Positions 5,659 to 51,341 of a stretch of DNA of 64,000 nucleotides are shown here, one piece after another. Under the pieces are notes generated by a model. The model saw only the letters and a list, made by a program, of their open reading frames with translations, was not told where the DNA came from and did no database searches. Positions within the stretch are counted from its first letter, which is position 1. Every line of letters starts with the position of its first letter. The DNA is from a virus. The position numbers were made by a program, and so were the translations under genes. Location: positions 16,302 to 80,301 of the IMG/VR virus record IMGVR_UViG_3300046557_000512. One strand, written 5' to 3'.

Positions 5659-6129
5659 TTAGGACCTCCCGTAGCGATGCGTGCGCTTCAGGCCCGGTGT
5701 CGTGCCCCACAATCCGGCCCGCAGCAGGTGCGTGTAGCCGTAGTCGATGCAGACCGGCCGCCCATCGATCATGCCCCAGTTGGTCCACCGGACGTCGTCG
5801 AAGAACGTCGGGACCCGCTTAACCTTCTCGAGGAAGTCAGGTTCATTCTCGAACACCGTCGCCTTCTTCATGATTAGCGCTGAGCCCCAACTGTCGATGC
5901 GGACGCACGGCGCGAACCAGCGCTCCCACTTGGTGCCCTTCACCGCCTGCCATATCTCCCACTCCATCGCGTTGTGGTGGCCAGGCCCGTATTGGATCTT
6001 CAAGACATGTTCCGGCTCGTGCCTCATGTCGTAGACGCGACGATAGGATCCGTCGCCCAGGAGGTTGCCGACGAACAGCTCAAGGGCGCAGTTCTTCAGC
6101 TGCACGATCTCATCGTAGATTGTGGTCAT
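5659..6129 (-). CDS. Minimal protein-kinase-like protein
   Basis: Gly loop LGDGSYRRVY, VLK lysine, helix-C Glu (NAMEW), catalytic DVRWTN, and IDYG. Confidence 0.7.
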   Translation of the reverse strand: MTTIYDEIVQLKNCALELFVGNLLGDGSYRRVYDMRHEPEHVLKIQYGPGHHNAMEWEIWQAVKGTKWERWFAPCVRIDSWGSALIMKKATVFENEPDFLEKVKRVPTFFDDVRWTNWGMIDGRPVCIDYGYTHLLRAGLWGTTPGLKRTHRYGRS

Positions 6130-7208
6130 TTGTAAGGGTTCCGCACTTTGATCTTCATTGCGAGGGTTCGGGAATACGGCCGAGCGTTGGCGATCGCGTA
6201 GCGCACCACCGCCGGTTCGACTTCGTTCGGATCACAGCCTTTCGGCAGGAATGCGATGCGCACCTGGAAGCCATGCGCCGTCAGCTGCTGCGCGGCGTCG
6301 ACCGCGGCCGAGAGAGCGTCCGGCGTGCCGTCCCAGATGATCGTAATGATCTTCAGGCCGGCCGCCTTCAACTTGAGCAGCGCGGTCAGCTGGTTGGGCT
6401 GTTCGCCGGTCAGCGTCAGGTTTTTGCCGAAGGATCCAACAGGAACGATCGCGCGCATCGCAGCGTCCTGGTCGAGCGCCTTCTTGGTCGCGATGACGTC
6501 GAAAGCCCCCTCCCCCATCGCAATGTGCGCCGCGCCGATCGCGTTGTGACCATTGTAGAGGAAGCGCGCGGTGCCAGGCAGCCGCGGCGGGAACAGATAC
6601 TTGCGGTCACTCTCTCGGGTGATGTCACGGCCCTGGAAGGTCACCAGCGTTCGGTCGAGATCCCACACCGGGATAATGACGCGGCCGGAGAAGACCATCG
6701 ACTGAGGCGAGCCGTCTTCCTTGGCGTATTTGAACGCGCCGTCGTGGCAGTAGCGCAGCCCGAAATAGCGGGCCAGATCGTTGGTGATACCGCGCTTGTC
6801 GATGTAGGGCAGCGTGCGGCCGTCATGGGTCGGCAGTTCGATCGAGTGCGGCAGCTTGACCTCACCCTCGATCGCCGGCGCGACATCGCGCTTTAGCGCG
6901 CGCTTCTTGGGCTTCCAGCCGCCAAGTTTCGCAATCTCGTCGAACAGCTTGCCGATCGCCTTCGAATCTTCGGTGCCCAGGTGAGCCTTCGCGAACGACC
7001 AGAGATTGAAGGGGCCGCACTTGAAGCAGTTACCGAGACCGCTCTCCACGCCGAGATAGACCTTCCAGTCCTCCGTGCTGCAGCGCGGGCAGACTTTGAC
7101 GTTGAACTGCATGCCCGATCGGCCGGACAAGGGGCCGCGATACTCGAAGCCCTCGTGCTCGAGGAAGTCCTCGGCCGTGACCTGATCGTAGCCCCTCTCC
7201 TCATTCAT
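6126..7208 (-). CDS. DNA primase (Zn finger plus TOPRIM)
   Basis: CPRC...CFKC zinc finger, GRVIIP, FQGRDI, GEGAFD, WDG, KGCDPNE. Confidence 0.88.
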   Translation of the reverse strand: MNEERGYDQVTAEDFLEHEGFEYRGPLSGRSGMQFNVKVCPRCSTEDWKVYLGVESGLGNCFKCGPFNLWSFAKAHLGTEDSKAIGKLFDEIAKLGGWKPKKRALKRDVAPAIEGEVKLPHSIELPTHDGRTLPYIDKRGITNDLARYFGLRYCHDGAFKYAKEDGSPQSMVFSGRVIIPVWDLDRTLVTFQGRDITRESDRKYLFPPRLPGTARFLYNGHNAIGAAHIAMGEGAFDVIATKKALDQDAAMRAIVPVGSFGKNLTLTGEQPNQLTALLKLKAAGLKIITIIWDGTPDALSAAVDAAQQLTAHGFQVRIAFLPKGCDPNEVEPAVVRYAIANARPYSRTLAMKIKVRNPYK

Positions 7209-8712: not shown

Positions 8713-8779
8713 TCGTGTCCGCTGCCGTTCGTGTGAGTGTGTGTCATTGACTATGCACTAGCCCGAATCGACCAAGGGG

Positions 8780-10364: not shown

Positions 10365-10420
10365 GTTTGTCACTCCTTTGTGTGTGTCGTCTACCATGCA
10401 CCGCGAGCAGCGCAACCGGT

Positions 10421-13115: not shown

Positions 13116-13233
13116 GGAAACCTCGTGTGTGCCGGACACTATGCACTACGGGCGTAGTGGTGCCGTTGGGTTTGGGGAGCGGTGCGCTCCGGGATCAGCA
13201 GCGCGAGGAGCGCCGCGAGGATTGTGCGGCGCA

Positions 13234-13970: not shown

Positions 13971-14206
13971 AAGCTGAATTTCTCCATGCAGGTTATCCTA
14001 TGCATGTGTGTTGAATAGCATGCAGTCTACCACGGGTAGTGGAGCTGTGCAACGGCAACGCAACGTTTGGATTGGTGCGAGGTCATCGTGCGGGCTACCT
14101 TGAAAACCGGGTATGTGCATGGTAGATAACACAACTGCGTGTTATACTCAACAGCGGTTGCACGCCGTCAACGCGTTTCACCACCCATCGGAGTTCACCA
14201 AACAAA

Positions 14207-15768: not shown

Positions 15769-18700
15769 TCAGTCGGGGATGAATGACGAGTGGAGGGTGA
15801 TCGTGCCGGAGAATTGCAGCCGGTAGTTGCCGTCTGTCGCGTCGGGCGAGCTCGACTTGTCGATTTGCAGAGTTGGTCCGCTCCCTGGCGCCGTCGAGGT
15901 CGTCAGGTCGTAGTTCGACGGGCTTGCCGGCGTCAGGATACGAAGACGAGCCGTGAAGCCGGTAGAGGTCAGACTGTCGGCGTAGAGCTTGTAGGTCTCG
16001 CCAGCGGAAAGTGGCGCCAGGTTGTTCTGCTTGAAATCGAGCGCAGGCAGAGCTCCAAGATCCGTGCCGAAGCTGACGACGTCGCCATCCGAGACAAGGA
16101 AATCCTTCGACTTCAGCGCTACAGGCCAGCCTTGCCCGGAGCCGAGACGAATGAACGCGCCGGCCTGAAGACCCCCGGTAAAGACGGCGTTGCCGCCGAC
16201 CATCTGGAGCGTGAGCGTCCAGCCGGCGGTGGTCTGATTATAGAGCGAGATGTTGGACGCGCCGATCGCGACGTCCGACGTCAGAGTTCCATTGTCATCC
16301 TTTGCACGGAAGCTGATGAACGCAGCCGCGGCGCCAGCCACAACTTCCTTTTGGGCGTAGGCTTCGACCTTGCCGTTGACCGTAACAAGCGCTCCCTCGG
16401 TCGTGGTGACCCGCGACGACAGCGACGTGATGCTCGACGTAGCTGCCTGCGACGCAATCTCCTGGTCGGTCGCAGCACGGAATGATGCCCGATACCATTC
16501 GATCACCTTGGCCGCGCGCGTCAGTTGGGCCCAGTTCGACAAGGCGAACAGAACAGGCTCGGTTGCCGCTGCGTCTTGCAAGCGAACCAGTTTCGCGAAA
16601 CGATACGTGGTGCCCGCGACGCCTGCACCGACCGCGTTGCCGCTGCTGTCGGGATCAGAGAAAAAGTCGATCCGACCCACATCCACCTGATAGGAATTGC
16701 TGCTGTTGTAGCCTTGAAGCAGCATGCTCGACCCGGCCAGCGAACCGCTGATAAGCCTGACTTCTGCTTCCAGCACATACCAGCCGAGACGAAGCGTGCC
16801 TTGACCCATTGCGGTAGTGTTGTTCCAGCTCTGCTGATGTCCGCATTCTTCGGCGGCCGCCACCGTATCGCGAATGGCGAAGCCACCGCGAGGGCTGGTT
16901 ACGCGGGCGCGCGTGGCTGCACCGGTGTAGGCCCAAACGCTCCAATTATCGGGCGGGTTCGACGCGTTCGCCCACGCGTTGAAGAGCGGGTTGACGTTGA
17001 TCGAGTTGGCGCCGATCGTCGCGGCCAGGTTGGCGCTCGACAGCGCGGCAGCTGCGCTGGCCGACGATGCCGCTGCGAAGCTCTGCGCATTGGTCGCGCT
17101 GGTCGATGCGTTGCCCGCTTGCGTGGAGGCCGTGACGGCCGAGCCGGCCGCGGCAGTCGCGCTGTTCGACGCGTTCGTGGCGGACGTGTTTGCGTTCGAG
17201 GCTTGGGTGCTTGCAGTGGACGCGCTGCTCGAGGCGTTGCCGGCGCTGGTGTTGGCGGCGGTGGCCGATCCGCTGGCGGCAGTTGCAGACGTCCCCGCGT
17301 TGGTCGCGCTGGTCGAGGCATTCGACGCGGACGTCGCAGCGGCGGTCGCGGATCCAGCTGCATTGAACTGATCGGTGACGTCCTCGAACTTGCACGAGGC
17401 CAGCTGATAGGTGTTGCTCGCATTGAGCGCGGCAAAGATCGGCCTGATATAAACGCCACCGGCAGCAATGACCGTATCGCCCGACACCTCAGTGACGCGC
17501 GTCACCCAGGTGTTCTGGGTCAGGATGCCACTGCCCGTGGAGATATTGGTCGCCTGATTATAGGCGTCGTTCAGGTAGGTTAGGTAGCAGGCGAACTGAG
17601 GGCTGCCGACCGGCACGTTTGTGACGCGCGCCGTCATCGTGACGCGATAGCGCCTGCCCGCCTGCGCCTTCATCACGCCGATCGACGAGTAATAGGTCGA
17701 GCCCGCACCGTCGACTTCGAACACCTTGCCGATGCCCGTAACCGTTGGGAACCGGAAGGTGGCGTTGGTCTGTATCGACACCCTGGTCGCCGGGTCTCCC
17801 GTATAGCCGGCCTGCCAGAACTTGCCCTCTTGCGTGAAGTCGCTGGGGAAGGTCGCGGCGGCGCTTTGAAGCGCGCCTGCTGCCGAGCTCGAGGCCGAGA
17901 CCTGGGAAGCCAGCGCAGCACTCGCGCTGTTCGACGCGTTGGTCGCCTGGGTGCTCGCGGTAGAGGCGCTACCAGACGCAGCCGTCGCCGAGCCAGCCGC
18001 AGCCGTTGCCGAATTGGATGCGTTGGTCGCCTGCGTGGACGCTGTGTTGGCCGAGCCGGCCGCATTCGTCGCCGAAGTGGCCGCGGTGGTTGCACTGGTC
18101 GAAGCATTGCCGGCGCTGGTCGAGGCGTTCGTGGCGCTGGTCTGTGCAGCACTCGCGCTGGTCGAGGCATTCGTGGCGCTGGTCGAAGCAGTGCTGGCCG
18201 AGCTGGCCGCTGCCGACGCACTCCCCGCAGCGGCGGATTGCTCGGTGATGTCGCGGATGTAAAGCGCGGTGACATCGACACGGGCCGCGGTTGCAAGGTT
18301 GGCCCCAGTGACATCGCGGTTGGTCAGAAGGCCCAACCGAAATACTTCCCCGGCAACCCCAGACGTCGTCGTGTCATAGGTCCAGGTGAGCGTCTGAACG
18401 GTGCCGTCGAGGAGAACGTAGGGAGACAGAACAACGTTGCCGCTATTGGCCTTCGCCGCGTTGAAGCGCGTCAGATATGCGCCCGCGTAGTTTGCGGCCG
18501 ATCCCGATACCTTCTTGATGACCGCGACAAGCTGATACTTGCGACCAGGCGCCCACACGATCTTGCTGTTGCACCAGGCGCCCCACGGATACGAAGCGGC
18601 CGCGGTGTCGAGCTGGATCGTCTTTCCGTCCGTCGACATGGTGTTAGCCGGCAGCGAACCATCGGCGTAGTTGGTGAACGCCTGCGTGAAGATCCCAGCC

Positions 18701-20982: not shown

Positions 20983-21028
20983 CCCCGCATTATAGGTTAT
21001 TGCATGTGTGTTGTCACCTATGCACTAG

Positions 21029-30170: not shown

Positions 30171-30518
30171 CTATGCCGGGGCCGGCTGATCCTTCGGGGT
30201 TGGGTTGAGTTTTCGCTGGAGCTCCAGGAACTTCGCTTCGTCGAAGCCCTTGATGACGACCGCCGGGGAGCCGACCTGCAGCTTCAGGGCTGCGAACAGT
30301 TCCTTGGCGCCCTCTCCGCTCTGGCCGGCGATTCCGACCTGGAGATTCATCTGGGCTTGCTCTGCCTGGAGCCGGTCGATCTGCTTGTTGGCGGACCAGA
30401 ACATCACCAGGGGCATCTGCATGACTTGTATGTGTGTTAGTCCGTATGCACCGGCGACGCGCCAGAAGAAGAACGGGAGATCTAGCTCTGCGAGCTGGTC
30501 TCCCCCAGCACGTTTCCC
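30171..30518 (-). CDS. Tail assembly chaperone, -1 frameshift extension (gpT-like)
   Basis: Slippery GGGAAAC at 30512-30518. The -1 frame is open: KRAGGDQLAELDLPFFFWRVAGAYGLTHIQVMQMPLVMFW... Confidence 0.75.
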   Translation of the reverse strand, partial: GKRAGGDQLAELDLPFFFWRVAGAYGLTHIQVMQMPLVMFWSANKQIDRLQAEQAQMNLQVGIAGQSGEGAKELFAALKLQVGSPAVVIKGFDEAKFLELQRKLNPTPKDQPAPA

Positions 30519-31502: not shown

Positions 31503-31572
31503 TTATCAGCTCTCCTGGGAAAATATGCAGCCAGCATCATAGCACGCATGTGTGTTATTTGCCATGCACTAT

Positions 31573-36821: not shown

Positions 36822-36890
36822 GCAACCTTTACTCTAAATTGTGTAGGTGCATGGATAATGCCACACATGCGGCATTTTTGCAACAGCGGC

Positions 36891-38507
36891 TTATGCGCCG
36901 GGCGGCTTCTCGTTGCCTGCGCCCTTGTTGTTCTCGCCCTGCTTACCCTTCTTGCCAGGGATTCCGCCGGCCGGCGCCGGGACACCAGGGCGGCCTGGGA
37001 GAAGCGTGGCTGGATCGGGCTCGACGAGCCAATCATTCTCGATGTCGTCCGCGACCTTCTTCGCCTCCTCGGCCGTGATCTGCGGATACATCTTCTTGGC
37101 CATGCGCGTCATCTGGAGCTTGCGCAGTTCCTTCGGTGCATTCATCACCGCCAGGCGCTGGGCGTTATCCATCTCGTCGGCGAGATTGCGCACATCGAAG
37201 GTCTGAGGATAGCTCACGCAGTCCTCGAAGTCCTCGAGCTCCTGGAGCGCGCCATGCCAACCTTCGACCAGGCGCGCGATGTTCTGCTCTGCGCCCGCCA
37301 GCGCCATCGCCTTGGCAACTAGCATCGCATTCAAGCGCTCGAAATCGTATGCCTTGGCGACACCGGAGCTATTGTCGATACCGACTGAATTGTCCTGCTT
37401 GGTCCGCTCGCCGGCCATGCCGATCGAGTGATAGATCTCGTCGATGATCTTGCTGACCACGGTGACGATGATGCCGGCCTGGCGCGGATCCGGCGACAGA
37501 AATTCAGGCGCTGAACCACCCTCGGCGTTGTAGGCGAACACACGTTTGGTGCCCATCTCATACATCTGCCGCTGGGTGCCAACCTTGCCGCTGTCGTCGT
37601 TGTCGGTCTCGAGCAGCCCCTGGTAGGGGATCGCGAGCTGACTGAAGGTCTGATCCTGGATGATCGCGTCGAGATTCGACAGGTAATTCGCGGCCGCGCG
37701 GTCGAGATACGCGGTATCCTCGATCAGCGCCGGCGAGCTGTAGAGCTCCTCGGACGGATTGTGATCGACCACAACGACGGGCACGGCGCCGAGCTGGTGC
37801 TCGCGGCTGTCCTCGGCCACGATCTGAGCGATGCGATCGCCATTACTCGCCTTGACGATCTCGATCACCGCGGTGAACTCTGGCGTCCAGAGACGGAAGC
37901 GCGGCGTTGATGCACCGCTCGACAGGGGGCTGGAATCGTCGCGCTTGGTTTCGAGCATCAAGAACCAGCTGAGCTCGCCGTCCTCGTCATACGCGAAATC
38001 GAGCGCGTCGATCGGCGAGATGACGAAGGCGTAAACGCGCCCCTTGGACTTCTTCTCGTCTTCCTTGGTGACGATGTTCTCGGGGAAGTTGTTGTCGACG
38101 ACCACATAGCAGCGGCCGAAGGTCGACGACTTGCGCGAGATGGTGTCGATCAACGCATCGATCGGACGCTTCATCAGCGTCGAGTTCTTCCAGAAGCGCT
38201 TGAGGTTTTCGGAAGCGTCTTCCTTGCGGGCGATGTCGCCCTTCAGGACATACTTGTTGACCAGGTTCACGACTTCGCGGGTGTGCGGGAATCGGTAGGC
38301 GCGCTTCTTGCGCGCGTTGAACTCTTTGGTCCCCTCCTTGTGGTAGCGCCACAGGTTCGTGTCGAACCACGACCGGCCGCCCTGGTAGGTCGCGTCAAGG
38401 AAGCGCCAGTGGTCGATCTTCTCCGCGTAGTCGGGGTGACGTCGATCGACCAAGGAGAGCAGCTCCTCGGGCTTAGCGGCCTTCAGTTGATCGAGAGTCA
38501 GGGACAT
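36891..38507 (-). CDS. Portal protein
   Basis: RHPDY...YQGG, SSGVAKAYDF, directly after terL. Confidence 0.88.
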   Translation of the reverse strand: MSLTLDQLKAAKPEELLSLVDRRHPDYAEKIDHWRFLDATYQGGRSWFDTNLWRYHKEGTKEFNARKKRAYRFPHTREVVNLVNKYVLKGDIARKEDASENLKRFWKNSTLMKRPIDALIDTISRKSSTFGRCYVVVDNNFPENIVTKEDEKKSKGRVYAFVISPIDALDFAYDEDGELSWFLMLETKRDDSSPLSSGASTPRFRLWTPEFTAVIEIVKASNGDRIAQIVAEDSREHQLGAVPVVVVDHNPSEELYSSPALIEDTAYLDRAAANYLSNLDAIIQDQTFSQLAIPYQGLLETDNDDSGKVGTQRQMYEMGTKRVFAYNAEGGSAPEFLSPDPRQAGIIVTVVSKIIDEIYHSIGMAGERTKQDNSVGIDNSSGVAKAYDFERLNAMLVAKAMALAGAEQNIARLVEGWHGALQELEDFEDCVSYPQTFDVRNLADEMDNAQRLAVMNAPKELRKLQMTRMAKKMYPQITAEEAKKVADDIENDWLVEPDPATLLPGRPGVPAPAGGIPGKKGKQGENNKGAGNEKPPGA

Positions 38508-38553: not shown

Positions 38554-39807
38554 TTACAGGTTGATACCGATCGGCAAACGATAGCGGCGCCCGTAGAGGT
38601 AATGGATCGGATACCCGACGGCGTCCATCATGTGCTCGACCCCCATCGCCTTGTCGACGACCGGTTGGCCGGACTTGTAGATCGTCTGCTCGGCGGACTC
38701 GATGACGTGGCTGCAGGTCCTGTTGACCCGCATGCGGATGGTGCCGTCGGCCGATCGGAACATGGCGTTGACCGCGGCGACACGATCGCTGACGAGCGGG
38801 TGCTTCTTCGGGAAGATGAGCTTGCGATAGCCCTTCTCCCTGAAGATATCCAAGTCGCTTTCGCCGCGGCTGGAGCTCCTGTTCGAGCCGGCGGGGTCGG
38901 GATAGATCGTGATCGCCGACTTGTTGCGGAAATACCGCCTGTCGAGTTCGTCAGCGACCTCCATCGCGTTCGAGTTCGGGAAGTGGATCTCGTCAACGAT
39001 CCATACCTCACCGCTCTCCTGGATCTGCATGATCGCTGCCGACATCGGGTCGACGTTGAAGTCCTGGCCGACGATGATCGGCAACTTGGGATTGTAGAGA
39101 TAATCGCCGACATGCTCGCGCCGGTCGAACTGGTAGTAGACGCGGCCCGACATGCTCTCGAAGGAAGCTTCAAACTCCTGGCGAAAGCTCTTGGGATCCA
39201 TCGAGTTCCGCGCCGTCTCGATTTCCGAGGGCGGGAAGAACGGGCTCATGATCGTCGGAATCTGCCAGCTCATGTATTCCAGCTTGCGCTGGTTTTTCCT
39301 GATCTGGCCGAGACGATACATCTCGTAGAAGTGGTTGAACGACTTGGGGGTGCCGATGATCAGCGCGCGGCCACGGGTCGTCGTCAGCGTCGGGAACAGG
39401 ACCTCCTGCCACACACCGGGACGGAAATCCTGGTATTCGTCCAGGATGAGGAAGTGGAGCGCGCGGCCGCGCAACGTGTCGGGTCGATCGGCGCCCTTGA
39501 GCTGAATGACGACGCCGTTGATGAGACGGATCTCGAGCCGCGTTTCGTGGGTCTTCTTGATCCACGAGGCCGGGATGTTGGCCAGCAGTTCGTCCCACAT
39601 GAGGTCGCGGGCCATCGTGAAGGTCGGCGCCACATACCAAATTATCTTGGGGCCGCGGCCGCGCGCTGCACGAATGATCTCGGCCCGCGCCAGCGTCGTC
39701 TTTCCGAAACGACGGCCGGCGACCAGCGTGCGGAAGCGCGCCGGATGCCTGAACACATCAGCCTGCCCCTTGTGGAGCTTGATGTGCAGCTTGGGCACGT
39801 CGAACAT
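38554..39807 (-). CDS. terL: Terminase large subunit
   Basis: AGRRFGKT, LRG...LILDE, IGTPK, GQDFNVDP, HMMDAVGY. Confidence 0.95.
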   Translation of the reverse strand: MFDVPKLHIKLHKGQADVFRHPARFRTLVAGRRFGKTTLARAEIIRAARGRGPKIIWYVAPTFTMARDLMWDELLANIPASWIKKTHETRLEIRLINGVVIQLKGADRPDTLRGRALHFLILDEYQDFRPGVWQEVLFPTLTTTRGRALIIGTPKSFNHFYEMYRLGQIRKNQRKLEYMSWQIPTIMSPFFPPSEIETARNSMDPKSFRQEFEASFESMSGRVYYQFDRREHVGDYLYNPKLPIIVGQDFNVDPMSAAIMQIQESGEVWIVDEIHFPNSNAMEVADELDRRYFRNKSAITIYPDPAGSNRSSSRGESDLDIFREKGYRKLIFPKKHPLVSDRVAAVNAMFRSADGTIRMRVNRTCSHVIESAEQTIYKSGQPVVDKAMGVEHMMDAVGYPIHYLYGRRYRLPIGINL

Positions 39808-39812
39808 AGCGA

Positions 39813-40376
39813 TCAGACCGAAGTGTCGTCGTCTTCGTCGTCTTCGAGGCCAGCCTGCCAGGCGGCCTCGTTAGCGTCCCTGACGGCCTCGATCTCATCC
39901 TCGGTGTATTCGCCGATGTTCAGGTCGGGCAGCTCGTCTTCGCTCGCTTCGAGCGACGGAATATCCAGGATGGTCCAGCTTTCCTCGCGCGCTTTGGCCA
40001 CGACCTTGATCGCGTTGCCAAGGACGATGAGATCGGCGTTGATGCCGGCGAGCGCCCCGTTCTTCTCTGCGTCGGCAACCTTCCTCATGGTCATCCGCGT
40101 CAGCGCGTTCATGTAGCTGGCGTAGTCCGCCTTGAGCTTGTTGGCCTCGGCGACGCGACGAGCGAGCTCCTCTCGAGCCTTATCATCGACGTCGTTCCGC
40201 ACCTCGTCGAGGCGCGAGTTCTTCTCGATGCCGCGCTCCTTCAGGCCCTTCTCGATCGCCTGGCGCGAAACACCGAAGCGCTCACCAAGCTGGCGCGTGT
40301 TCGCCTCGCCGCGCTCGTAGAGCACGACGATCGTGGCCCATTCGGCGGGCGTCAGGTTGCCGGTGCGGGTCGTCAA
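39813..40376 (-). CDS. terS: Terminase small subunit (N-terminal HTH)
   Basis: HTH TRQLGERFGVSRQAI, helical core, acidic tail, directly upstream of terL. Confidence 0.75.
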   Translation of the reverse strand: MTTRTGNLTPAEWATIVVLYERGEANTRQLGERFGVSRQAIEKGLKERGIEKNSRLDEVRNDVDDKAREELARRVAEANKLKADYASYMNALTRMTMRKVADAEKNGALAGINADLIVLGNAIKVVAKAREESWTILDIPSLEASEDELPDLNIGEYTEDEIEAVRDANEAAWQAGLEDDEDDDTSV

Positions 40377-40564
40377 AGGATCGCCCCTACAGCCTGCAGA
40401 TCAACGGAGTTCGCGGAGTGCATGTTAGTAATATACCACACACACCGCGGAAATGGAACTTGCTCGCGCTGCGAGCGATCACCGGGGAGTGTTCGATCAC
40501 CCCTCGCGCATATACGCGTGCGTTGCGCTAGGCGTGCGTGCATGCGCGTATACGCGTGAAAGAG

Positions 40565-40592
40565 ATTCCTAGAATCTAAGAATCTAGAATCA
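40565..40592. repeat. AGAATC(T) short repeats forming four GANTC sites
   Basis: GANTC at 40565, 40573, 40581 and 40588 in AT-rich intergenic DNA upstream of terS. Confidence 0.7.
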
Positions 40593-40666
40593 GTATTATA
40601 TTCACTTCGTTCATATAATGATGACGAGGTCATTTTTTTATCAATTTGGACAGTCATGTTGACCTA

Positions 40667-40954
40667 TTAGATTGTCGGCCTGAAAATCGCATATCCCGCG
40701 GTGGTCGCACTGTAGGTGCGCAAAGAGCGCTTCCGGCGAGTCACGAGCTTGTCCTCGCGAACCAGGCCATGCGCGGCGAGATGCCGAAGGCTGCAGAGCA
40801 TGGCTCCTCGGGTGGTGTTCGGCGCGACGAGGTCGATCAGCTGCATCACGTCGAGCAGGGTGCCGTCGGGGTTTCGCCGGATCAGCGTCTGCATGATCGC
40901 GGTCTGCTTCGGCGTCATCTTGGGCGGCAGGCGCTTGGCGTCCAGCTGCATCAT
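40667..40954 (-). CDS. Small winged-helix DNA-binding protein
   Basis: MTPKQTAIM...TTRGAMLCSLRHLAAHGLV...YSATTAG. Confidence 0.7.
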   Translation of the reverse strand: MMQLDAKRLPPKMTPKQTAIMQTLIRRNPDGTLLDVMQLIDLVAPNTTRGAMLCSLRHLAAHGLVREDKLVTRRKRSLRTYSATTAGYAIFRPTI

Positions 40955-41880
40955 GGCAGCACCAGGGGCTTGGTCGGATCCTGCGCGTCGAAGGCGCGAA
41001 GCGGCAGCACCGCCGGCAGCGACCGGCCGGTCTCAGGGTTCTGCCAGACGCCGTAGAGCGGGCTCGCAAGCGTCATTTGCTGCAGCTGCCCCAGGCAGTC
41101 GCGCATCGACATGTTCGCGACGCGCCGCTCCCCTACTCCGCCCAGTGATTTGCCGGTCTTTTCGAGGCTCGAGTTCTTGTAATAGAAATCCTTGGTCAGG
41201 CGCTCGATCACCGCGCGCTCGCCCTCGGGCAGCTCCATCCATTCAGCCAGGATCGCTTCAAGATCGGCGGGATCGGCCTTGAACGTCGATCGGAAGAAGC
41301 GGATGCCGACGTCGTACTTGTTCGAGCGCATCGGCTTGACGAACTGGAAGCCTGCGCGGTGCGCGAACTGGTTGTATTTCGACATCGAGGATTGGATCTC
41401 GATGTAGCGTTTGCCCTCCATCCGTGCGGCCAGATTGGTGAAGCGGTATGCGAGACCAGCGCCGCGATACATCGTGTCGACCACGACGCGCGCGACCACC
41501 GACATGTTCGCGTTGATCCACTTCATCCGATATTGATTGGTGATCTTATTGTCCTGGCCGGTGGGCTTCAGCTTCGGAAACAGGACATGGCGTTCCTTCA
41601 GAAGAAGCTTGGGGCTCGCCATCACCAACACGCCGACGAGCTCGTCGCCGAGCTTCAACGTGAAGTGGTGGCTTCCCGCCGGCAGCGTGCCGTGCTGCTT
41701 GTAGTGGAGGCCCTCGAGCACGCGCCAATCCTCGATCGTGCCGCGCTGGACGGTCATGTCGTCGAGCAACGAGAGCTTGGGGCGCGCGATGCCGCGCTCG
41801 AACACCCAAGGTGCTTCGAGCCTTGCAGATTCGGGGTTGTCAGCGATCTGCTTGATCGCTAGATGTGTGTCATTGACCAT
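40951..41880 (-). CDS. GNAT-fold acetyltransferase-like protein
   Basis: LEGLHYK, VVARVVVDTMYRGAGLA (acetyl-CoA motif A), F..RAGF. Start MVNDTH overlaps the ATPase stop. Confidence 0.78.
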   Translation of the reverse strand: MVNDTHLAIKQIADNPESARLEAPWVFERGIARPKLSLLDDMTVQRGTIEDWRVLEGLHYKQHGTLPAGSHHFTLKLGDELVGVLVMASPKLLLKERHVLFPKLKPTGQDNKITNQYRMKWINANMSVVARVVVDTMYRGAGLAYRFTNLAARMEGKRYIEIQSSMSKYNQFAHRAGFQFVKPMRSNKYDVGIRFFRSTFKADPADLEAILAEWMELPEGERAVIERLTKDFYYKNSSLEKTGKSLGGVGERRVANMSMRDCLGQLQQMTLASPLYGVWQNPETGRSLPAVLPLRAFDAQDPTKPLVLP

Positions 41881-42517
41881 GCACACGCTCGATAACAATC
41901 CGCTCGTGAAAGCGCTTCGTGATTTTGAGGCTCGGTGCGAGCTCATCGACGAGGTCACTGTGCGTGGTCGCGACGATGAGGGTCTTTCCATTTGCACGCG
42001 CCGCCTTGGCGAGGTTCCAGGCGACAATCTTCGCCGTCGTGCGATCCAGGACCGCACCAAACTCGTCAGCGACCCAGACATCAGCGCCGCATTCGATCAG
42101 CTTGGCGAGGCGGTATCGATATTTCTGCCCGTCGCTGAGCTCTTGGGGCTTGCGAATATAGAGATACGCGTCGGAGAGCCCGGCGATCGAGAGCAGCCGG
42201 ATCGCTTCAGCCATGTTATCGGGACACAGCTGGTCTATGATCGCAACGTCGTTGCACAGCTCGACTTCGTCTATGTTCGCAACCTTCTGGCCAGCAGCCT
42301 CGAGGGCTGCGCTCGTCTCGCGAAGGAGCACAGATTTGCCGGCGCCCGACTGTCCGTTGATGTAGACGACCTCACCAGGCTCAACATCAAACTCCACACC
42401 ATCGAGCACGACAAACTCGCGGTCCTCGAGGCCGAGTCCAAACGCTTCCGCTACCTTGATGACCCGGTCGCTGCGCGTCACGCGGGTCTGGAATGACTTG
42501 TTCAAAGTGATCTTCAT
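41870..42517 (-). CDS. Stand-alone ABC-type ATPase (no permease)
   Basis: Walker A GQSGAGKS, signature LSDGQ, Walker B VWVADE, H-loop ATTH. Confidence 0.88.
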   Translation of the reverse strand: MKITLNKSFQTRVTRSDRVIKVAEAFGLGLEDREFVVLDGVEFDVEPGEVVYINGQSGAGKSVLLRETSAALEAAGQKVANIDEVELCNDVAIIDQLCPDNMAEAIRLLSIAGLSDAYLYIRKPQELSDGQKYRYRLAKLIECGADVWVADEFGAVLDRTTAKIVAWNLAKAARANGKTLIVATTHSDLVDELAPSLKITKRFHERIVIERVHGQ

Positions 42518-42951
42518 TCGGCGCCCTCATCGATGAGGCTGTCGTAGCCCATCGCCTTGTCCTGGATGTGGGTTTTGAGCAGGTCACAGCCGCCGAGGAA
42601 CATCGCCAAGTGCTCCTCCAGGCCCGGCGAGAAGATCGTCTCGACATACCCCATGAAGCGCTCGTTGCTTTCGGCGCCCGCGACGATCGCGACGTGCCGT
42701 ATCTCGCCCGATCGCGCGCGGTCGGCGAGCGTCTCGAGCACTTGCGCAGTCATCTCGCGTGCTTCGCGGCGCTCCTCCTCGCCGGTCATGACCGGGCCGC
42801 CGTAGATCGGCAGCACGTTGCTCTCGAGCGGCTCCTCATCGGGTTCAGCGTCGACCAACATGATGACGACCTTTTGCCCAGGGGCAGGCTGAAGAATATC
42901 CGCGGCGAGCTCGCGCAGCGCCTCGAGATCGTGCAGTTCAGGCATGCGCAT
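42514..42951 (-). CDS. Acidic hypothetical protein
   Basis: Coupled to the ATPase (ATGA overlap). Confidence 0.65.
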   Translation of the reverse strand: MRMPELHDLEALRELAADILQPAPGQKVVIMLVDAEPDEEPLESNVLPIYGGPVMTGEEERREAREMTAQVLETLADRARSGEIRHVAIVAGAESNERFMGYVETIFSPGLEEHLAMFLGGCDLLKTHIQDKAMGYDSLIDEGAE

Positions 42952-43621
42952 TGAGCCATCCTTCGAATGCGTCGAGGCCAGTCTTGCCCGTCTGATCCTC
43001 GATCTTGGCGATGAAGCGCTTGAACAACGGCTCCATCCTGACCGGCACCGCCTTGAAGCCGAATACCTTGGAGATCGGCGTCATCGCGTCATCGACCGCG
43101 GCGACCTTGCCGGCAGTCTCGGCATCTTGCGCATCGATCTCGGCATCGAGATCGCCGGCGAGTCCGCCCATGTTCATTGCCCCCAGGTCCTCGGTCAGGA
43201 ATCCAAGTTCATGATCATCGAGGCCCAGGGACGCGAGATCGACGTCGTCGGCGTTCGCCAGGCGCTCAAGTTCCTCGGCGAGAAAGCCGCTGTCGTATTC
43301 GGTGCCTTGGGTCTTGTTGTCGGCGATACGCGCGGCGTCAGCCTGGTTCTTGCTGAGGTGCTTCGCCCATTTCACCGGGAACTCGACGTGACCCATCTTC
43401 AGCAGGCACTGGAAGCGCTTGTGCCCGGCGATGATGATCCCGTCGATGTCTACGATGATCGGGTTGAACAGACCATATTCGCGGATCGACTTGATCGTCG
43501 CCTCGACGTCTGCACTGGAGTGGATCTTGTTGTTCTTGGCGTAGGGGTGAATGCGGTCGGCCGTCCACATCTCGGTGGGCAGCAACTGCAGGCCGTAGGG
43601 GTCATGTGTGGCGATCACCAT
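42938..43621 (-). CDS. ParB/Srx N-terminal domain protein
   Basis: PYAKNNKIH, SIREYG, IIIAGHKRF, RIADNK. Confidence 0.85.
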   Translation of the reverse strand: MVIATHDPYGLQLLPTEMWTADRIHPYAKNNKIHSSADVEATIKSIREYGLFNPIIVDIDGIIIAGHKRFQCLLKMGHVEFPVKWAKHLSKNQADAARIADNKTQGTEYDSGFLAEELERLANADDVDLASLGLDDHELGFLTEDLGAMNMGGLAGDLDAEIDAQDAETAGKVAAVDDAMTPISKVFGFKAVPVRMEPLFKRFIAKIEDQTGKTGLDAFEGWLNAHA

Positions 43622-43625
43622 GCAC

Positions 43626-43769
43626 TCAATACCTCATCAGGTCGTCAACGCCGGCTGGCTCGACCTCTTCGAAAAACTCGCCTGCATCGCAGCCGTTACA
43701 GGGACGAACCTTGCCGGCGAACACGCAGTCCGAGCACTCATCGAACTTCAGTTCGATATCCTCATCCAT
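43626..43769 (-). CDS. 47-aa acidic Cys4 protein
   Basis: Hand translation MDEDIELKFDECSDCVFAGKVRPCNGCDAGEFFEEVEPAGVDDLMRY, with SD GGAGG. Confidence 0.7.
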   Translation of the reverse strand: MDEDIELKFDECSDCVFAGKVRPCNGCDAGEFFEEVEPAGVDDLMRY

Positions 43770-44421
43770 CGTCCACCTCCTTACTCAGAATGTGCATGAG
43801 CGCGTCGCCGGCGTTGGTGAGCTCGTCGGCTTGGGTGAACCCCTGGGCCTTCATGACACCGCCGATCAGCGCGCGGGCGCGAGCAGCATCAGCCAGCGTC
43901 AGCTTGAAGCGGAGAATCTCGTGCGTCTTGGGGTCCTTGGTCGGCGCGTCCGTCACCGTGTCCATGTCGCCCGCCTCCATTGGGGCGTCGTCCAGGTCCA
44001 AGCCAGAGATGTCGACGCTCAGCGAAGCGGTGAAGGCCGCGACATCGTGGTCGCTCCAGGGCATCACCGCGGTGATGTCGATATCGTCGAGGTCCTCGAG
44101 CAACGAGGCCATCTTGAGCGCATCGTCGTGACCGTAGCGCGCGTTATCGAGCAGGCCGATCTCCATCGCACGGGCGTCGTCGATCTTGCCGAGGTTCCAG
44201 ATCGGCACCTCGCTGAAATCGAGATGAACCGCCTGCTCGACACGGTGCCAGCCACCGATCGACTGCACCGATCCGTCATCGAGTTCGCGCACCAGGACGG
44301 GTCGAAAGAACCCGTGGCGCCGAAGCGATTCACGGATCTTCAGCTCCGCCTCATGGCTGACCACGTTGGTGTTCCAGGGATTGGGGCGAATTTCCCTGGG
44401 GTCTATTGTGTCATTACGCAT
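43762..44421 (-). CDS. ParB/Srx N-terminal domain protein
   Basis: IRPNPWNTN, SLRRHGF..PVLVR, IGGWHR, DNARYG. Confidence 0.85.
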   Translation of the reverse strand: MRNDTIDPREIRPNPWNTNVVSHEAELKIRESLRRHGFFRPVLVRELDDGSVQSIGGWHRVEQAVHLDFSEVPIWNLGKIDDARAMEIGLLDNARYGHDDALKMASLLEDLDDIDITAVMPWSDHDVAAFTASLSVDISGLDLDDAPMEAGDMDTVTDAPTKDPKTHEILRFKLTLADAARARALIGGVMKAQGFTQADELTNAGDALMHILSKEVDDG

Positions 44422-44573
44422 GCACTAGCGCCGGTGAGGTTTTCATGCCCGCCAGTATAGGCGATCTGCCTACGGAAATCCAGCGTTCTTTACCGAAATC
44501 ATCTACACAAAACGCAGGGTAGATGACACACGCACAGTTGCAAACCTACACGCTTTTTGGTAGAGTATTACCG

Positions 44574-46139
44574 ATGAGGCCAGTCGCTCAGTTACTCGCA
44601 AACCCAGTCGTCGCCCAAGTTCGCGGCGTCGACGATGCCGTGCGTCTGCAGCTGTCCGAGGCGATGAGCTACATCATCGAGGGACACGAGCACATGGGTG
44701 CGCCCGGCTGGGATGGTCGCTCGACGCTCTACGACTGGAACACCAACAAATTCCCCGCCGGCTTCCAGGCAACGGCCGAGGCCGTGCTCAAAGCCGCTGG
44801 TTACGACGTTCAGATCCTCAAGCATCCCCTGCCCGCCCCGCTGGGGCCGATGCCCACGCAAGAGAATAGTCTCGTCGACGATTTCGGGCCGAACCCGAGC
44901 TACGACTATCAGTTCCTCGCCCCGCTGATCCTTGAGCGCCACGGCACGATGATTGCGCGCTGCGCGACCGGCGCCGGCAAGAGCCGCATTGCGAAGCTGT
45001 GCATCAAGCGCATCGGCCGCAAGACGCTGTTCATGACCACGCGCCAGGTGCTCCTCTACCAGATGGGGGAAGCGCTCGAGGCGGCCGGCTTCAAGGTCAG
45101 CTATGTCGGCGATGGCTCGTGGGACACCTCCGGCGACGTCGTGCTCGGCATGGTGCAGACGCTTGTCGATCGCCTGACCGAGCAGCCCAAAGGCATCAGC
45201 ATGTCGATGTCGCCCACGCAGATCAGCCAGGCGACGGACAAGTGGCGCGCGCGGCGCGATGAGTGCGTCGATTTCCTCCAGGAGATCGAGTTTGTCATCG
45301 GCGAGGAAGCGCACGAGGCCGGCGGCAACAGCTACTTCACCGTCCTCAAGAATTGCCGCAAGGCCGCGTATCGACTGGCTTTAACCGGCACGCCGATGAT
45401 GCGCGACGGCGAAAGCAACGCGCGTTTGATCGCCATGTTCGGCCCGATCCGAATGGAAGTGACCGAGGAGATGCTGATCCAGCGCGGCATTCTCGCGCGA
45501 CCGATCTTCAAGATCCTCGATTCGGAAGCGCCACCCACCCTGCGCCGCGGCTCCGCGTGGCAGAAAGCCGAGCAGATCGGCATCGTAGACAACATGTGGC
45601 GCAACAAGCGCATTTGCGCTGAAGCGATCCGCGCAAGCCGGTTCGGTCTGTCGACGATGATCCTGGTCAAGCGCAAGGTCCACGGCGAGATCCTGAAAAA
45701 CATCCTCGCCGGCGCGGGCATGCGCGTAGAATACATCTACGGCGACAGCAACAAGACGAAGCGCGACAAGGCGCTGAAAGACATGCGCGACGGCAAGTTG
45801 GATGTGCTGATCGGCTCGACGATCCTTGACGTGGGTGTCGACGTGCCGGCGATCGGCATGTTGATCCTGGCTGGCGGCGGCAAAGCAGAGGTTGCGATCC
45901 GCCAGCGCATCGGTCGCGGGCTCCGCGCGAAGAAGCGCGGCCCCAACGTCTGCTACGTGCTCGATTTCCGCGACAAGATGAACAAGCACCTGGCGGGCCA
46001 CAGCGCCCAGCGGCTCGAGATCCTGAAGCAGACCCCAGGCTTCGCTGAGAACATCCTGCCCAAGGGCAAGGACTTCGACTTCATTGGCGACGGGTTCGTT
46101 GCCGCGAACGACAACACCAGACAGGCAGCTGCAGCGTGA
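44574..46139 (+). CDS. Superfamily 2 DNA helicase
   Basis: ATGAGKS, EEAH, TGT, DVGVDVP, QRIGRGLR. Promoter TTGCAA-N17-TAGAGT (44538-44566) ends 7 nt before ATG 44574. Confidence 0.9.
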   Translation: MRPVAQLLANPVVAQVRGVDDAVRLQLSEAMSYIIEGHEHMGAPGWDGRSTLYDWNTNKFPAGFQATAEAVLKAAGYDVQILKHPLPAPLGPMPTQENSLVDDFGPNPSYDYQFLAPLILERHGTMIARCATGAGKSRIAKLCIKRIGRKTLFMTTRQVLLYQMGEALEAAGFKVSYVGDGSWDTSGDVVLGMVQTLVDRLTEQPKGISMSMSPTQISQATDKWRARRDECVDFLQEIEFVIGEEAHEAGGNSYFTVLKNCRKAAYRLALTGTPMMRDGESNARLIAMFGPIRMEVTEEMLIQRGILARPIFKILDSEAPPTLRRGSAWQKAEQIGIVDNMWRNKRICAEAIRASRFGLSTMILVKRKVHGEILKNILAGAGMRVEYIYGDSNKTKRDKALKDMRDGKLDVLIGSTILDVGVDVPAIGMLILAGGGKAEVAIRQRIGRGLRAKKRGPNVCYVLDFRDKMNKHLAGHSAQRLEILKQTPGFAENILPKGKDFDFIGDGFVAANDNTRQAAAA

Positions 46140-47049: not shown

Positions 47050-47685
47050 ATGCTGGTCATCAGTTTCATCAGTCAGAAGGGCGGCGTGGGCAAATCGGTG
47101 CTCGCGCGATTGCTCGCCACTGAGCTCACCGGCGCAGGCTACACCACTCGCATCGCGGACCTGGATGTCCAGCAGGCGACCTCGACCCGCTGGGCCGGGC
47201 TACGGCTGGAGAATGGCCACTCGCCGGCGGTGGACGCGCGCTTCTATAAGTCGGTCGGCCAGGCAATCCGGGAAGCCGAGGGCACCGACGTTCTGATCTT
47301 CGACGGCAAGCCTATCGCGGATGCACAGGCCACCGAGGCCGCGCGCAAATCGAACCTGATCGTTCTTCCCACTGGGGCTAGTCTCGATGACCTGCAGCCC
47401 GCGGCGCAGCTGGTCCACGCTCTGCTGAAAGAGGGCGTGCCGGCGAAGCGTATCCTTATCATGCTGGTCGGCCAGATGACCGAATTGACGGAAGCGGACG
47501 CTCGCACTGTGCTGACCAATGCCGGCATGCGCGTCGCCGTAAGCAAGCTGCGCAAGCTCCCCAGCTATGAGGCTGCATTGGGCCAGGGGCTATCACCAAC
47601 CGAGACATGGGGAAAGCCGGGGCTGCGCGCCGAAGCGGCGGCGGTGGCCGAGGAGATCGTCGACGTGTTGAAGGAGGCCAAGTGA
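47050..47685 (+). CDS. parA: Short (type Ib) ParA partition ATPase
   Basis: SQKGGVGKS deviant Walker A, ADLDVQQ. 211 aa with no N-terminal HTH. Confidence 0.9.
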   Translation: MLVISFISQKGGVGKSVLARLLATELTGAGYTTRIADLDVQQATSTRWAGLRLENGHSPAVDARFYKSVGQAIREAEGTDVLIFDGKPIADAQATEAARKSNLIVLPTGASLDDLQPAAQLVHALLKEGVPAKRILIMLVGQMTELTEADARTVLTNAGMRVAVSKLRKLPSYEAALGQGLSPTETWGKPGLRAEAAAVAEEIVDVLKEAK

Positions 47686-47930: not shown

Positions 47931-47970
47931 GTCTTGCGCGGTCCCGCGCTTGATCGTATGTGCATAGTCG

Positions 47971-48267
47971 ATGACACACACTCACCTAGCCGCGGCTGAC
48001 ATGATCGAGGTTGAATACCCGCCGGTGATCGACACCGACGTGGTCTATGACGAGGGCGCCGAGCAGAGCAAGTTTCTGGTGGGCGCGCTTGCCAATGTGG
48101 ACGCTGAGCTACTGACTAGCGGGTATAGCCAGATTCGGCTCGCCCAGGCCCACGCGAGCCGCGCGCTAGATCTGCTGCGCGACTGCGGCGACGATGTGAG
48201 TGCCCAATATCTGATGCTCATGAACTCGCGCCTTTGGCTCGACCAGGCGAAGGGTGCCCGCGCATGA
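47971..48267 (+). CDS. Hypothetical protein
   Basis: First gene after promoter TTGCGC-N17-TATGTG. Confidence 0.55.
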   Translation: MTHTHLAAADMIEVEYPPVIDTDVVYDEGAEQSKFLVGALANVDAELLTSGYSQIRLAQAHASRALDLLRDCGDDVSAQYLMLMNSRLWLDQAKGARA

Positions 48268-50163: not shown

Positions 50164-50204
50164 ATAAGTCTTGACGTGTGTGTGTTGTTTGCTATGCACG
50201 TCTT

Positions 50205-51341
50205 ATGAACGATCAAACGAACATCGTGACCGGCCCGACGCTCTTTAAGCGTGACACGAGCGGACGGGTCAGGGTCTGGCGTGCGGAGCGCCAGGATCAT
50301 TGCCACCGGGTCGTTTCGGGGCTCCAGGACGGCAAGCTCGTGGAGAGCGGCTGGACTGTTTGCGAAGCGACCAACGTAGGTCGCTCGAACGAGCGCGACC
50401 CGGTGGCGCAGTGCGATTTTGAGGTTCGAGCACTCTACGAGTTCAACGTCTCGCGCGATTATCACGCGTCGGTCGACACGATCGACGAACCCAAGTTCTT
50501 CGAGCCCATGCTCGCGAAGAAATACGAAGGATTCGAGCCCGGTTTCGCTCAGCCGAAGCTCGACGGGGTCCGCTGCATTGCCAGGGCGACCGGCCTCTTT
50601 ACCCGACAGGGCAAGCCGATTTCGAGCTGCCCACACATCGTCGAGGCATTGGCGCCCCTATTCGCAGCAGACCCCGATCTCATTCTCGATGGCGAGCTCT
50701 ACAACCACGCGCTGAAGGACGACTTCAACGAGATCATCAGCCTCGTGCGAAAGGCGAAGCCCAAGGCCGACGATCTCCAGGCGACCGCGGCGAAGGTTCA
50801 ATACCACGTCTACGATATGCCGTCGCACCCCAGCGACTTCCATAATCGCTTCAAAAGCCTCGTCGTCAGCATGGCGGCGAGCAGCGCCGGAACGGCGTTC
50901 GCTGAGGGCAATGTTCTGGTCATGGGGCCGGTGCGCACGGTGCTCACGAAGCGCGTCGAGACCGCAGATGATTTCGATGCGCTGCATGGTGAATGGCTCA
51001 CATGCGGTTTCGAAGGGTCAATGTGGCGCGCTGACGCGCCCTACGAGCAGAAGCGCTCCAAGCACCTGCTGAAGCGCAAGGAGTTCCAGGACGCCGAGTA
51101 CGAGTGCGTTCGGATCGAGGAAGGTCTGGGCAACTGGGCCGGCCTAGCAAAGCGGGTGGTCTGTCGACTGCCCGACGGCCGCGAGTTTGGCGCCGGCATC
51201 AAGGGCAACATGGCGCGAGCCAAAGAGCTCCTGAGCGAGACGCACAACGTCGTGACCGTCCAATTCTTCCAACTGACGCCCGACGGGATCCCGCGCTTCC
51301 CCGTCGTGACGAAATTCTGGGGCGCGGAAAGGACCTTATGA
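50205..51341 (+). CDS. ATP-dependent DNA ligase with N-terminal WGR-like domain
   Basis: PMLA, QPKLDGVR, LDGELY, YHVYD, EGSM, LLKRK, PRFP. Confidence 0.92.
   Translation: MNDQTNIVTGPTLFKRDTSGRVRVWRAERQDHCHRVVSGLQDGKLVESGWTVCEATNVGRSNERDPVAQCDFEVRALYEFNVSRDYHASVDTIDEPKFFEPMLAKKYEGFEPGFAQPKLDGVRCIARATGLFTRQGKPISSCPHIVEALAPLFAADPDLILDGELYNHALKDDFNEIISLVRKAKPKADDLQATAAKVQYHVYDMPSHPSDFHNRFKSLVVSMAASSAGTAFAEGNVLVMGPVRTVLTKRVETADDFDALHGEWLTCGFEGSMWRADAPYEQKRSKHLLKRKEFQDAEYECVRIEEGLGNWAGLAKRVVCRLPDGREFGAGIKGNMARAKELLSETHNVVTVQFFQLTPDGIPRFPVVTKFWGAERTL

Follow-up and report, generated by a model that had tools for sequence, protein, structure and literature searches.

A seven-gene cassette ahead of the terminase genes

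The subject of this analysis is a cassette of seven genes in a 64-kb window (the whole stretch of DNA that was analysed, positions 16,302 to 80,301 of the IMG/VR virus contig IMGVR_UViG_3300046557_000512), which belongs to the SSU5-like phage-plasmid lineage and has a G+C content of about 62%. The seven open reading frames (ORFs) occupy positions 40667-44421 on the minus strand and are part of a long minus-strand operon (region 36.9-46.1 kb). The original prediction, which had been made from the sequence of the window alone, described them as tightly coupled genes just upstream of terS, terL and portal, and all ORFs, overlaps and neighbours were indeed found: the junctions consist of overlaps of 8, 14, 4, 11 and 4 nucleotides (nt) and one 4-nt gap. 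Two of the products, an ABC ATPase and a GNAT-fold protein, align as the halves of one fused enzyme, and it is this enzyme, together with its ParB-fold partners, on which the interpretation of the cassette turns.

The first gene of the cassette encodes a ParB-fold protein (ParB1, 43762-44421; phrog_723, 4.2e-51) and is followed by the gene of a 47-aa mini-protein with four cysteines (Cys4 mini-protein, 43626-43769; CxxC...CxxCxxGEFFE, then an acidic tail), by a second ParB gene (ParB2, 42938-43621), and by the gene of an acidic protein of 145 aa with an isoelectric point (pI) of 4.4 (42514-42951), a member of whose family is found at the same place in relatives. Then come the genes of a soluble ABC ATPase of 215 aa (41870-42517; ABC_tran, 8e-13; phrog_293, 1e-41), of a GNAT-fold acyltransferase-like protein of 309 aa with a pI of 9.6 and a helical insert (40951-41880; phrog_886, 5e-107), and of a small basic protein of 95 aa with a pI of 11.2 (40667-40954). 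For the GNAT gene, the ATG at 41880 was taken as start because it gives a protein to which homologues of 304-309 aa align from the first residue on, and the alternative reading of 376 aa from an upstream ATG was rejected.

The ABC ATPase and the GNAT protein as one enzyme

The ABC protein carries all catalytic motifs of its superfamily, namely GQSG(A/S)GKS (Walker A), LSDGQ, VWVADEF (Walker B) and TTH (H-loop), which are conserved in 72 sequences and by which it can be assigned to the ABC ATPases. A permease gene, whose lack beside the ATPase had been noted beforehand, was found neither in the operon nor in the approximately 80 syntenic loci described below, and the protein therefore does not qualify as part of an ABC transporter.

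For the GNAT-like protein, Pfam gave no match of any kind, and its sequence profile matched no solved structure. The AlphaFold2 model (pLDDT 81) nevertheless predicts a GNAT fold with the helical insert, and VIA structure comparison relates this model to many GNATs with Z of 10-12, 124-141 residues being aligned at root-mean-square deviations (rmsd) of 3.0-3.4. Examples of the Z values are 11.8 (3bln), 11.6 (RimI, 5isv) and 10.6 (Mom, 8bv8), and NatA was matched as well; a search of BFVD gave generic GNAT matches only. In the stretch R139-G-A-G142-L143-A144 (R-x-x-G-x-A), R139 and G142-L143-A144 are invariant in 32 sequences, and fused relatives carry RGIGLG at this place, with R339 and G342 invariant. 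By its sequence, the protein thus contains the acyl-CoA pyrophosphate-binding motif A (Q/R-x-x-G-x-G/A), and model, Z values and motif together bear out the GNAT call of the original prediction despite the silence of Pfam.

The structural matches bear on what may be acylated. The top Foldseek matches of the model are polyamine, agmatine and arylalkylamine N-acetyltransferases (E about 1e-4), as would be expected if the cassette acetylated a small molecule, e.g. DNA-condensing polyamines, a host defence signal or an antibiotic-like molecule. Such enzymes, however, require neither an ABC ATPase nor a ParB partner, and the TM-scores are low (0.3-0.45) and cover the common GNAT core only, and we regard this explanation as quite improbable. 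Foldseek matches also include NAT10, TmcA and Mom. The first two could speak for an RNA acetylation that yields N4-acetylcytidine and tunes translation late in infection, and the fact that some ABC ATPases, such as those of the ABC-F and ABCE families, act on ribosomes was counted in favour of this idea. The ATPase of the window is of the ABC type and not a helicase-like module as in TmcA, though, no tRNA-binding domain is present, and partners and neighbours are related to DNA. With TmcA and NAT10, the GNAT core alone aligns (TM 0.1-0.3), which places the protein outside that family, and an action on RNA appears very unlikely to us.

It is the relatives in other genomes that tie the ABC ATPase to the GNAT protein. 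A full-library search with the GNAT protein gave 296 representative relatives, many of which have a length of 450-900 aa and contain ABC_tran ahead of the GNAT region. The consensus of these fused proteins spans both phage proteins end to end, with the ABC ATPase aligning to residues 1-210 of the fused proteins, and fused consensus and phage proteins share an N-terminal EAFGLG and a C-terminal Y-x-x-W-x-NP motif. In agreement with this, tblastn and profile matches of both window proteins land on single ORFs of 410-570 aa. Fused relatives that bear a name come from metagenome-assembled genomes of Nitrososphaerota or have JGI labels such as “ABC-type ATPase with predicted acetyltransferase domain”. 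Judged by these alignments, the ABC gene and the GNAT gene each encode one half of a COG2401-type enzyme that is fused elsewhere.

Four fused relatives of the representative library (P0204, P0174, P0179, P0216) are unusual in form: one has an intein that holds a LAGLIDADG domain inside its ABC domain, and others are fused to, or run on into, the C-terminal domain of Gins51, a TFIIB repeat and part of a family B DNA polymerase.

Synteny in the SSU5-like lineage

The SSU5-like phage-plasmid group includes the pHCM2, pKpn and pMT1 groups (PMC7969092). By blastn, the region was found in Rhizobium and Pseudomonas phages, in SSU5 and in E. coli phages, and 482 plasmid records, mostly of non-mobilizable enterobacterial plasmids, are matched by the ABC gene. 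For the comparison of gene order, 80 related IMG/VR loci were used together with SSU5 and the Rhizobium phage RHph_N1_10, some gene counts being based on 73-82 loci. The survey of neighbourhoods, which the original prediction had recommended, gave a clear answer: the order is uniform in all 80 IMG/VR loci, with the helicase on one side, followed by ParB1, (Cys4), ParB2, a gap, ABC, a gap, GNAT, (small basic protein), terS, terL and portal, and SSU5 and the Rhizobium phage have the same order. ABC and GNAT are conserved about as strongly as terL, with 50-55% identity. The cassette is therefore a conserved module and not a chance cluster.

The junction between ABC and GNAT genes is variable, ranging from -7 to 2184 nt with a median of 437 (77 loci), and in the present window the two genes overlap. 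This junction is an insertion hot spot: Rhizobium phages and plasmids have a DUF2829 gene at this place (in RHph_N1_10 at 5685-6187 of locus L002), which we take to be of the family of the anti-Thoeris protein Tad2, and SSU5 has a gene of 84 aa there.

The ParB-fold proteins and the public annotation

ParB1 has a ParB/Srx nucleoside triphosphate (NTP)-binding domain (residues 1-95), which a disordered acidic linker joins to a small conserved domain at the C-terminus, built of a strand and two helices. Its Pfam ParB_N score of 27.9 bits is above the cut-off of 26.3, and its AlphaFold2 model (pLDDT 82) is matched by Foldseek with 5e-8 to CTP- or CDP-bound ParB, Noc and KorB (7bm8, 6sdk, 7nfu). 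The motifs GGEHR and DNARYG of ParB1, like GHGR and DN of ParB2, are conserved across 65-67 sequences. The model thus predicts that the N-terminal domain of ParB1 has the ParB/Srx (ParB-CTPase) fold with a GxxR nucleotide-binding motif. For the C-terminal domain, a profile found nothing in the PDB; a ribbon-helix-helix could be imagined, an idea which comes solely from the strand-helix-helix pattern of the model.

ParB2 has a Pfam ParB_N score of only 16.6 bits, which is below the cut-off, and its assignment to the ParB fold follows from profile matches (phrog_930, 2.7e-51) and the conserved GHGR. Residues 17-172 of this protein match the N-terminal module of the PADLOC profile MTase_II (profile positions 11-170) with 6.7e-21, and the N-terminus of phrog_498, annotated as “DNA methyltransferase”, is matched with 1.6e-29. 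From these matches, ParB2 is the ParB module that is otherwise fused to phage DNA methyltransferases, with the methyltransferase missing here and a short C-terminal domain in its place.

In public records of SSU5 and RHph_N1_10, both ParB genes bear the name “ParB-like partition protein”, and the next two conserved genes are called “ABC transporter” and “ABC transporter ATP-binding subunit”; one could in principle take these names at face value. Canonical partition ParB proteins have a central helix-turn-helix (HTH) domain and a ParA in their operon, and the ParB proteins of the cassette have neither. The lack of a centromere-binding HTH, to which the original prediction had drawn attention, is seen in the ParB1 model, where no such domain follows the N-terminal domain, and in the Pfam scan, which gives no HTH_ParB match. 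A ParA-like ATPase of 211 aa with the motif KGGVGKS is encoded on the plus strand at 47050-47685, outside the cassette, 2.6 kb from it and in another operon, just as the separate parA locus had been predicted, and this would be the real partition locus. The ParA-like gene of RHph_N1_10 is followed by a 92-aa gene that is annotated with a transcription-regulation term. On the transport side, the permease is missing in all of the loci, and the second “ABC subunit” has a predicted GNAT fold. As the genes moreover are located in a late packaging operon, the partition and transporter labels have nothing but the databases in their favour; we consider it extremely unlikely that they are correct and reject them as wrong.

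Linkage of the module outside the lineage

Genome contigs that encode a fused or adjacent ABC-GNAT pair were found in Bathyarchaeia, Nitrososphaeria and Planctomycetota. In ten planctomycete loci, a ParB-fold gene accompanies the pair (ABC-GNAT-ParB), and several loci also contain terL, some of them with the ParB gene (L097, L103, L108) and some without (L105, L109). There is only one ParB-fold gene in planctomycete loci versus two in the SSU5-like lineage. The locus L095 is an island of genes for an HTH protein, ABC, GNAT, ParB and a protein of unknown kind, with cellular genes on its flanks, which argues that the target is not a phage protein. A Bathyarchaeota locus has an adjoining gene with a PAPS-reductase domain.

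IMG/VR contains 589 contigs with the fused gene, and a terL of the Terminase_6 type is directly upstream of it in 45 of the best 80. A small Myb-like gene precedes terL, and in archaeal-type contigs the fused gene is often followed by genes for DNA methyltransferases or for restriction. The genes that come right after the fused gene encode a PAPS-reductase domain in L088 (7794-8552), an N6_N4 methylase and an AlwI endonuclease in L232 (7935-10717), and an Eco57I-like methylase in L177 (8148-10454). In other viral contigs with the fused gene, a tail gene precedes it instead of terL.

The adjacency to terminase genes could also mean that the cassette is a packaging accessory that does not transfer acyl groups to DNA, i.e. 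that the ParB proteins, the small basic protein and an ABC-GNAT clamp recognise or prepare the packaging site or the concatemer, with the GNAT domain serving mainly as binding module. The position directly upstream of a non-coding gap and terS would agree with such a function, and so would two planctomycete loci in which GNAT and terL are direct neighbours and leave no space for a terS. This explanation has difficulties with the invariance of the acyl-CoA-binding motif from phages to the archaeal-type fused proteins, with the normal terS in the present window, and with those viral contigs in which the fused gene stands beside tail genes rather than terL, and we judge it improbable.

Accessory proteins and neighbouring genes

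The 47-aa ORF between the two ParB genes, which had been proposed as a gene missed by annotation, is real, as the same cysteine pattern occurs between the ParB genes in 45 related loci, and an ORF of at least 30 aa is present in this gap in 57 loci. Its pattern makes a zinc ribbon likely; matches in Pfam or PHROGs were not obtained. For the acidic protein, an iterated profile identified family members with pI 4.1-5.7 in 57 of 73 loci, located between the genes of ParB2 and ABC; family searches gave no match of value and a search of the atlas nothing usable. Of 77 loci, 72 have a relative of the small basic protein after GNAT. This protein has no informative family match (phrog_900 with 1.5e-15 only), and its earlier label as winged helix we presume to be no more than a candidate. 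PADLOC assigned no defence system to the cassette beyond generic ABC matches and the MTase_II N-terminus, and NCBIfam gave sub-threshold matches only.

Upstream of ParB1, an SF2 helicase is encoded divergently on the plus strand (44523-46139), with synteny throughout the SSU5-like lineage. As this synteny is limited to the lineage and the gene is absent from the distant ABC-GNAT loci, where no helicase match was found in planctomycete or archaeal-type loci, the helicase was rejected as a member of the module.

On the other side, a non-coding AT-rich gap of 290 bp (40377-40666) separates the gene of the small basic protein from terS (39813-40376), which is followed by terL (38554-39807) and portal (36891-38507), all on the minus strand. 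The terS and terL assignments come from matches to phrog_867/1206, Terminase_6N/6C and phrog_2 taken together, and that of portal from its conserved position and the annotation in RHph_N1_10. An ORF of 94 aa at 40373-40657 is probably no gene, as none of 82 loci has a relative and no family match was found. The gap may contain a promoter or the packaging site. The sole promoter-like site on the minus strand of the region is at 40644-40615, inside this gap before terS; in the promoter and terminator scan, the number of sites was no higher than in shuffled sequence. The linear SSU5 record starts and ends at the position equivalent to the gap, which may only reflect the numbering of the record. 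Among the sequencing runs listed as containing the stretch there is no RNA run, the only run being a rhizosphere metagenome from which the sequence may itself derive.

The terL match of several related phage-plasmids comes in two pieces, 0.5-1.3 kb apart (L009 9800-12301, L022 9027-11645, L046/L047 9023-11561, L055 4047-6557, L040/L041 8729-10510), which suggests an intron, an intein or a homing-endonuclease insertion in the large terminase gene.

A dispersed 21-bp motif

The original prediction had also listed three 21-bp motifs at internal starts of the cassette. The motifs are real, but one of them sits at the first gene of the operon and thus not at an internal start, and they cannot be regarded as a feature of the cassette: the three repeats of 21-22 nt belong to a family GTGCATRG-N7-ACACA that is found across the window in 14 copies at up to two mismatches, versus 1.65 expected, and in none of 100 shuffles was the number of 14 reached. 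Within the cassette, the copies lie on the minus strand on the start codon of ParB1 (44407-44425), with relatives having it just upstream of the ParB1 start, on the start codon of ParB2 (43607-43625), and on the start codon of GNAT inside the end of the ABC gene (41866-41884). In seven related loci (L003, L004, L007, L008, L009, L010, L015), the start codons of ParB2 and GNAT are covered by the motif in exactly the same placement. In one of these, L009, the ATG is replaced by ATA and the ORF begins at the next GTG, and two relatives have the palindromic form GTGTGT-N7-ACACAC. As the motif is kept on start codons in relatives, including the ATA in L009 and the palindromic forms, it is to be seen as a nucleic-acid signal, and it therefore would dictate the odd M-V-x-D-T-H N-termini of the proteins that start on it.

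Further copies of the form GTGCATRG-N7-ACACA(CAY) are at 2355-2373, 8740-8758, 10383-10401, 13128-13146, 14115-14133, 20996-21020, 30433-30451, 31551-31569, 36847-36865, 47960-47978, 50181-50199 and 50982-51000. Most copies are 10-25 nt ahead of a ribosome-binding site or overlap a -35 position, and downstream of those at 14115, 31551 and 36847 comes CATGCG with a -10-like box, or a hairpin-like leader CAACAGCGG. The motif likely serves as a late promoter of the phage or as a dispersed operator comparable to the C1 operators of P1.

What may the cassette do?

The reading that we favour, tentatively, is that the cassette encodes a multi-subunit, nucleotide-gated acyltransferase that acts on phage DNA close to the moment of packaging, the ParB proteins serving as its activators. 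ATP binding would close the ABC dimer and thereby switch or position the GNAT domains, and the ParB proteins, as NTP switches, would load or activate the enzyme on double-stranded DNA, a step that is proposed by analogy with the ParB partner of phage thymine dioxygenases and with DpdB of the Dpd system. An acyl group from acyl-CoA could then be put on a base amino group of the replicated phage DNA before or during packaging, and the Cys4, acidic and small basic proteins would be lineage-specific accessory subunits. The mark could be a protection from host nucleases, or a signal for packaging or self.

Several observations were counted in favour of such a DNA acylation, i.e. the fusion of ABC and GNAT with catalytic motifs in both halves, the synteny over about 80 loci, the adjacency to terL, the planctomycete ABC-GNAT-ParB loci, the likeness of ParB1 to CTP-bound ParB, the match of ParB2 to MTase_II, and also the pI of 9.6 of the GNAT protein. 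The original prediction had proposed an acylation of virion DNA or packaging proteins as a means of anti-restriction, and these two parts fared differently: acylation has gained indirect support by the ABC-GNAT fusion, the terL adjacency, the methyltransferase-type module of ParB2 and the precedents for ParB activators, whereas anti-restriction sits poorly with a conservation equal to that of the core gene terL. That DNA is what the cassette acylates is thus a possibility to be held with reserve, to which domains, motifs, fusion, synteny and neighbourhoods point in combination. A wider version, in which ABC-GNAT and ParB partners acylate canonical bases of viral DNA at the hand-over to the terminase, as a chemistry common to bacterial and archaeal tailed viruses, and in which the motif on the ParB2 and GNAT starts sets timing and ratio of the subunits, seems rather doubtful to us. 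We know of no description of an acyl mark on canonical bases of DNA outside Mom.

There are points that weigh against a DNA-acylating function. The GNAT protein is as close to N-acetyltransferases of proteins or small molecules (RimI, NatA, polyamine N-acetyltransferase) as it is to Mom and NAT10, with identities of about 10%. The nearest relatives of the ABC protein are nucleotide-binding domains of the transporter type and not DNA clamps of the SMC/Rad50 kind. The conservation at the level of terL points to a core role in morphogenesis more than to an accessory one in anti-restriction. The annotated genes of SSU5 show no pathway to an amino-bearing hypermodified base, ParB profiles found no ParB gene in the archaeal-type viral contigs with the fused gene, and to our knowledge Mom is the only GNAT that acylates DNA.

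In the main rival explanation, the ATP-gated GNAT acetylates a protein of packaging or of the virion, such as terminase, portal or capsid, or a DNA-bound host protein such as HU, and ParB brings the enzyme to DNA-bound targets. The best structural neighbours include RimI, NatA/Ard1, Naa50/60 and HP0935, the position in a late operon and the terL-like conservation fit a morphogenetic role, and terL is adjacent in distant viruses as well. On the other hand, GNATs all score alike, and their ranking therefore has no specificity; ABC-GNAT-ParB islands exist among cellular genes where no phage protein is nearby, and the ParB-fold partners point to DNA. Protein acetylation hence deserves to be taken seriously, but we are inclined to doubt it.

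Returning to the favoured acylation of phage DNA, it would, if true, establish a new kind of DNA mark and give ABC ATPases and ParB switches a new task. Irrespective of the target, the module is a core part of SSU5-like phage-plasmids that has been misnamed as partition or transport genes in public records, and the enzyme pair stands beside the terminase across hundreds of bacterial and archaeal-type viral contigs. The window adds the Cys4, acidic and small basic proteins as conserved subunits in the SSU5-like lineage, the motif on two internal start codons, and numbers for the terL adjacency.

Comparison with known systems

A literature search found no paper on this cassette, with Iyer et al. 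2013, Krishnan et al. 2020 and the Weigele-Raleigh review being outside the reach of that search. Among enzymes that could serve as models for the GNAT half, Mom of phage Mu comes to mind, a phage enzyme of the GNAT fold that modifies DNA adenine. The GNAT model shares this fold with Mom (8bv8; Z 10.6, rmsd 3.4 over 141 residues), but the identity is 10%, Mom ranks only 15th by Z and is tied with unrelated GNATs, it has no ABC ATPase, and we know of no ParB partner of Mom. TmcA and NAT10 likewise couple an ATPase to a GNAT for the acetylation of a nucleic-acid base and appear among the Foldseek matches; unlike the cassette with its ABC-type ATPase, they have a helicase-like ATPase and RNA-binding domains, and their substrate is RNA.

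For the ParB partners, the closest precedent is a phage ParB homologue without HTH that activates a thymine dioxygenase (5mYOX) on double-stranded DNA (PMC13229309). In its predicted architecture, ParB1 resembles this activator, as both have an NTP-binding and a C-terminal domain, no DNA-binding domain, and enzyme genes adjacent, but the partner differs, being an ABC-GNAT pair and not an Fe/2-oxoglutarate dioxygenase, and the window has two ParB paralogues. In 7-deazaguanine DNA modification, the ATPase DpdB is needed by DpdA (PMC10164549), and in that system, too, an enzyme that modifies DNA bases depends strictly on a ParB-fold NTPase. DpdB, however, carries a DGQQR motif and a C-terminal domain that is large and helical, the Dpd enzyme is a transglycosylase, and the Dpd context is a cellular restriction-modification island versus a packaging operon here. 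Fusions of the ParB fold to methyltransferases and to an acetyltransferase exist (PMC12704722), and residues 17-172 of ParB2 correspond to the N-terminal ParB module of the ParB-DNA methyltransferase fusions (phrog_498, MTase_II), from which ParB2 differs by having no methyltransferase domain. With ParABS systems, the cassette shares the N-terminal NTP-binding fold of ParB, and it deviates from them by the lack of both HTH and operon-encoded ParA and by its place in a late packaging operon.

The known kind to which the cassette belongs, as far as its sequences tell, is that of the COG2401-type ABC-GNAT proteins, described as [quoted passage not shown]. The ABC and GNAT proteins of the window align at full length to both halves of these proteins and carry the same motifs, but in the window the two halves are encoded by separate, overlapping genes and are accompanied by two ParB-fold genes and by the Cys4, acidic and small basic proteins.

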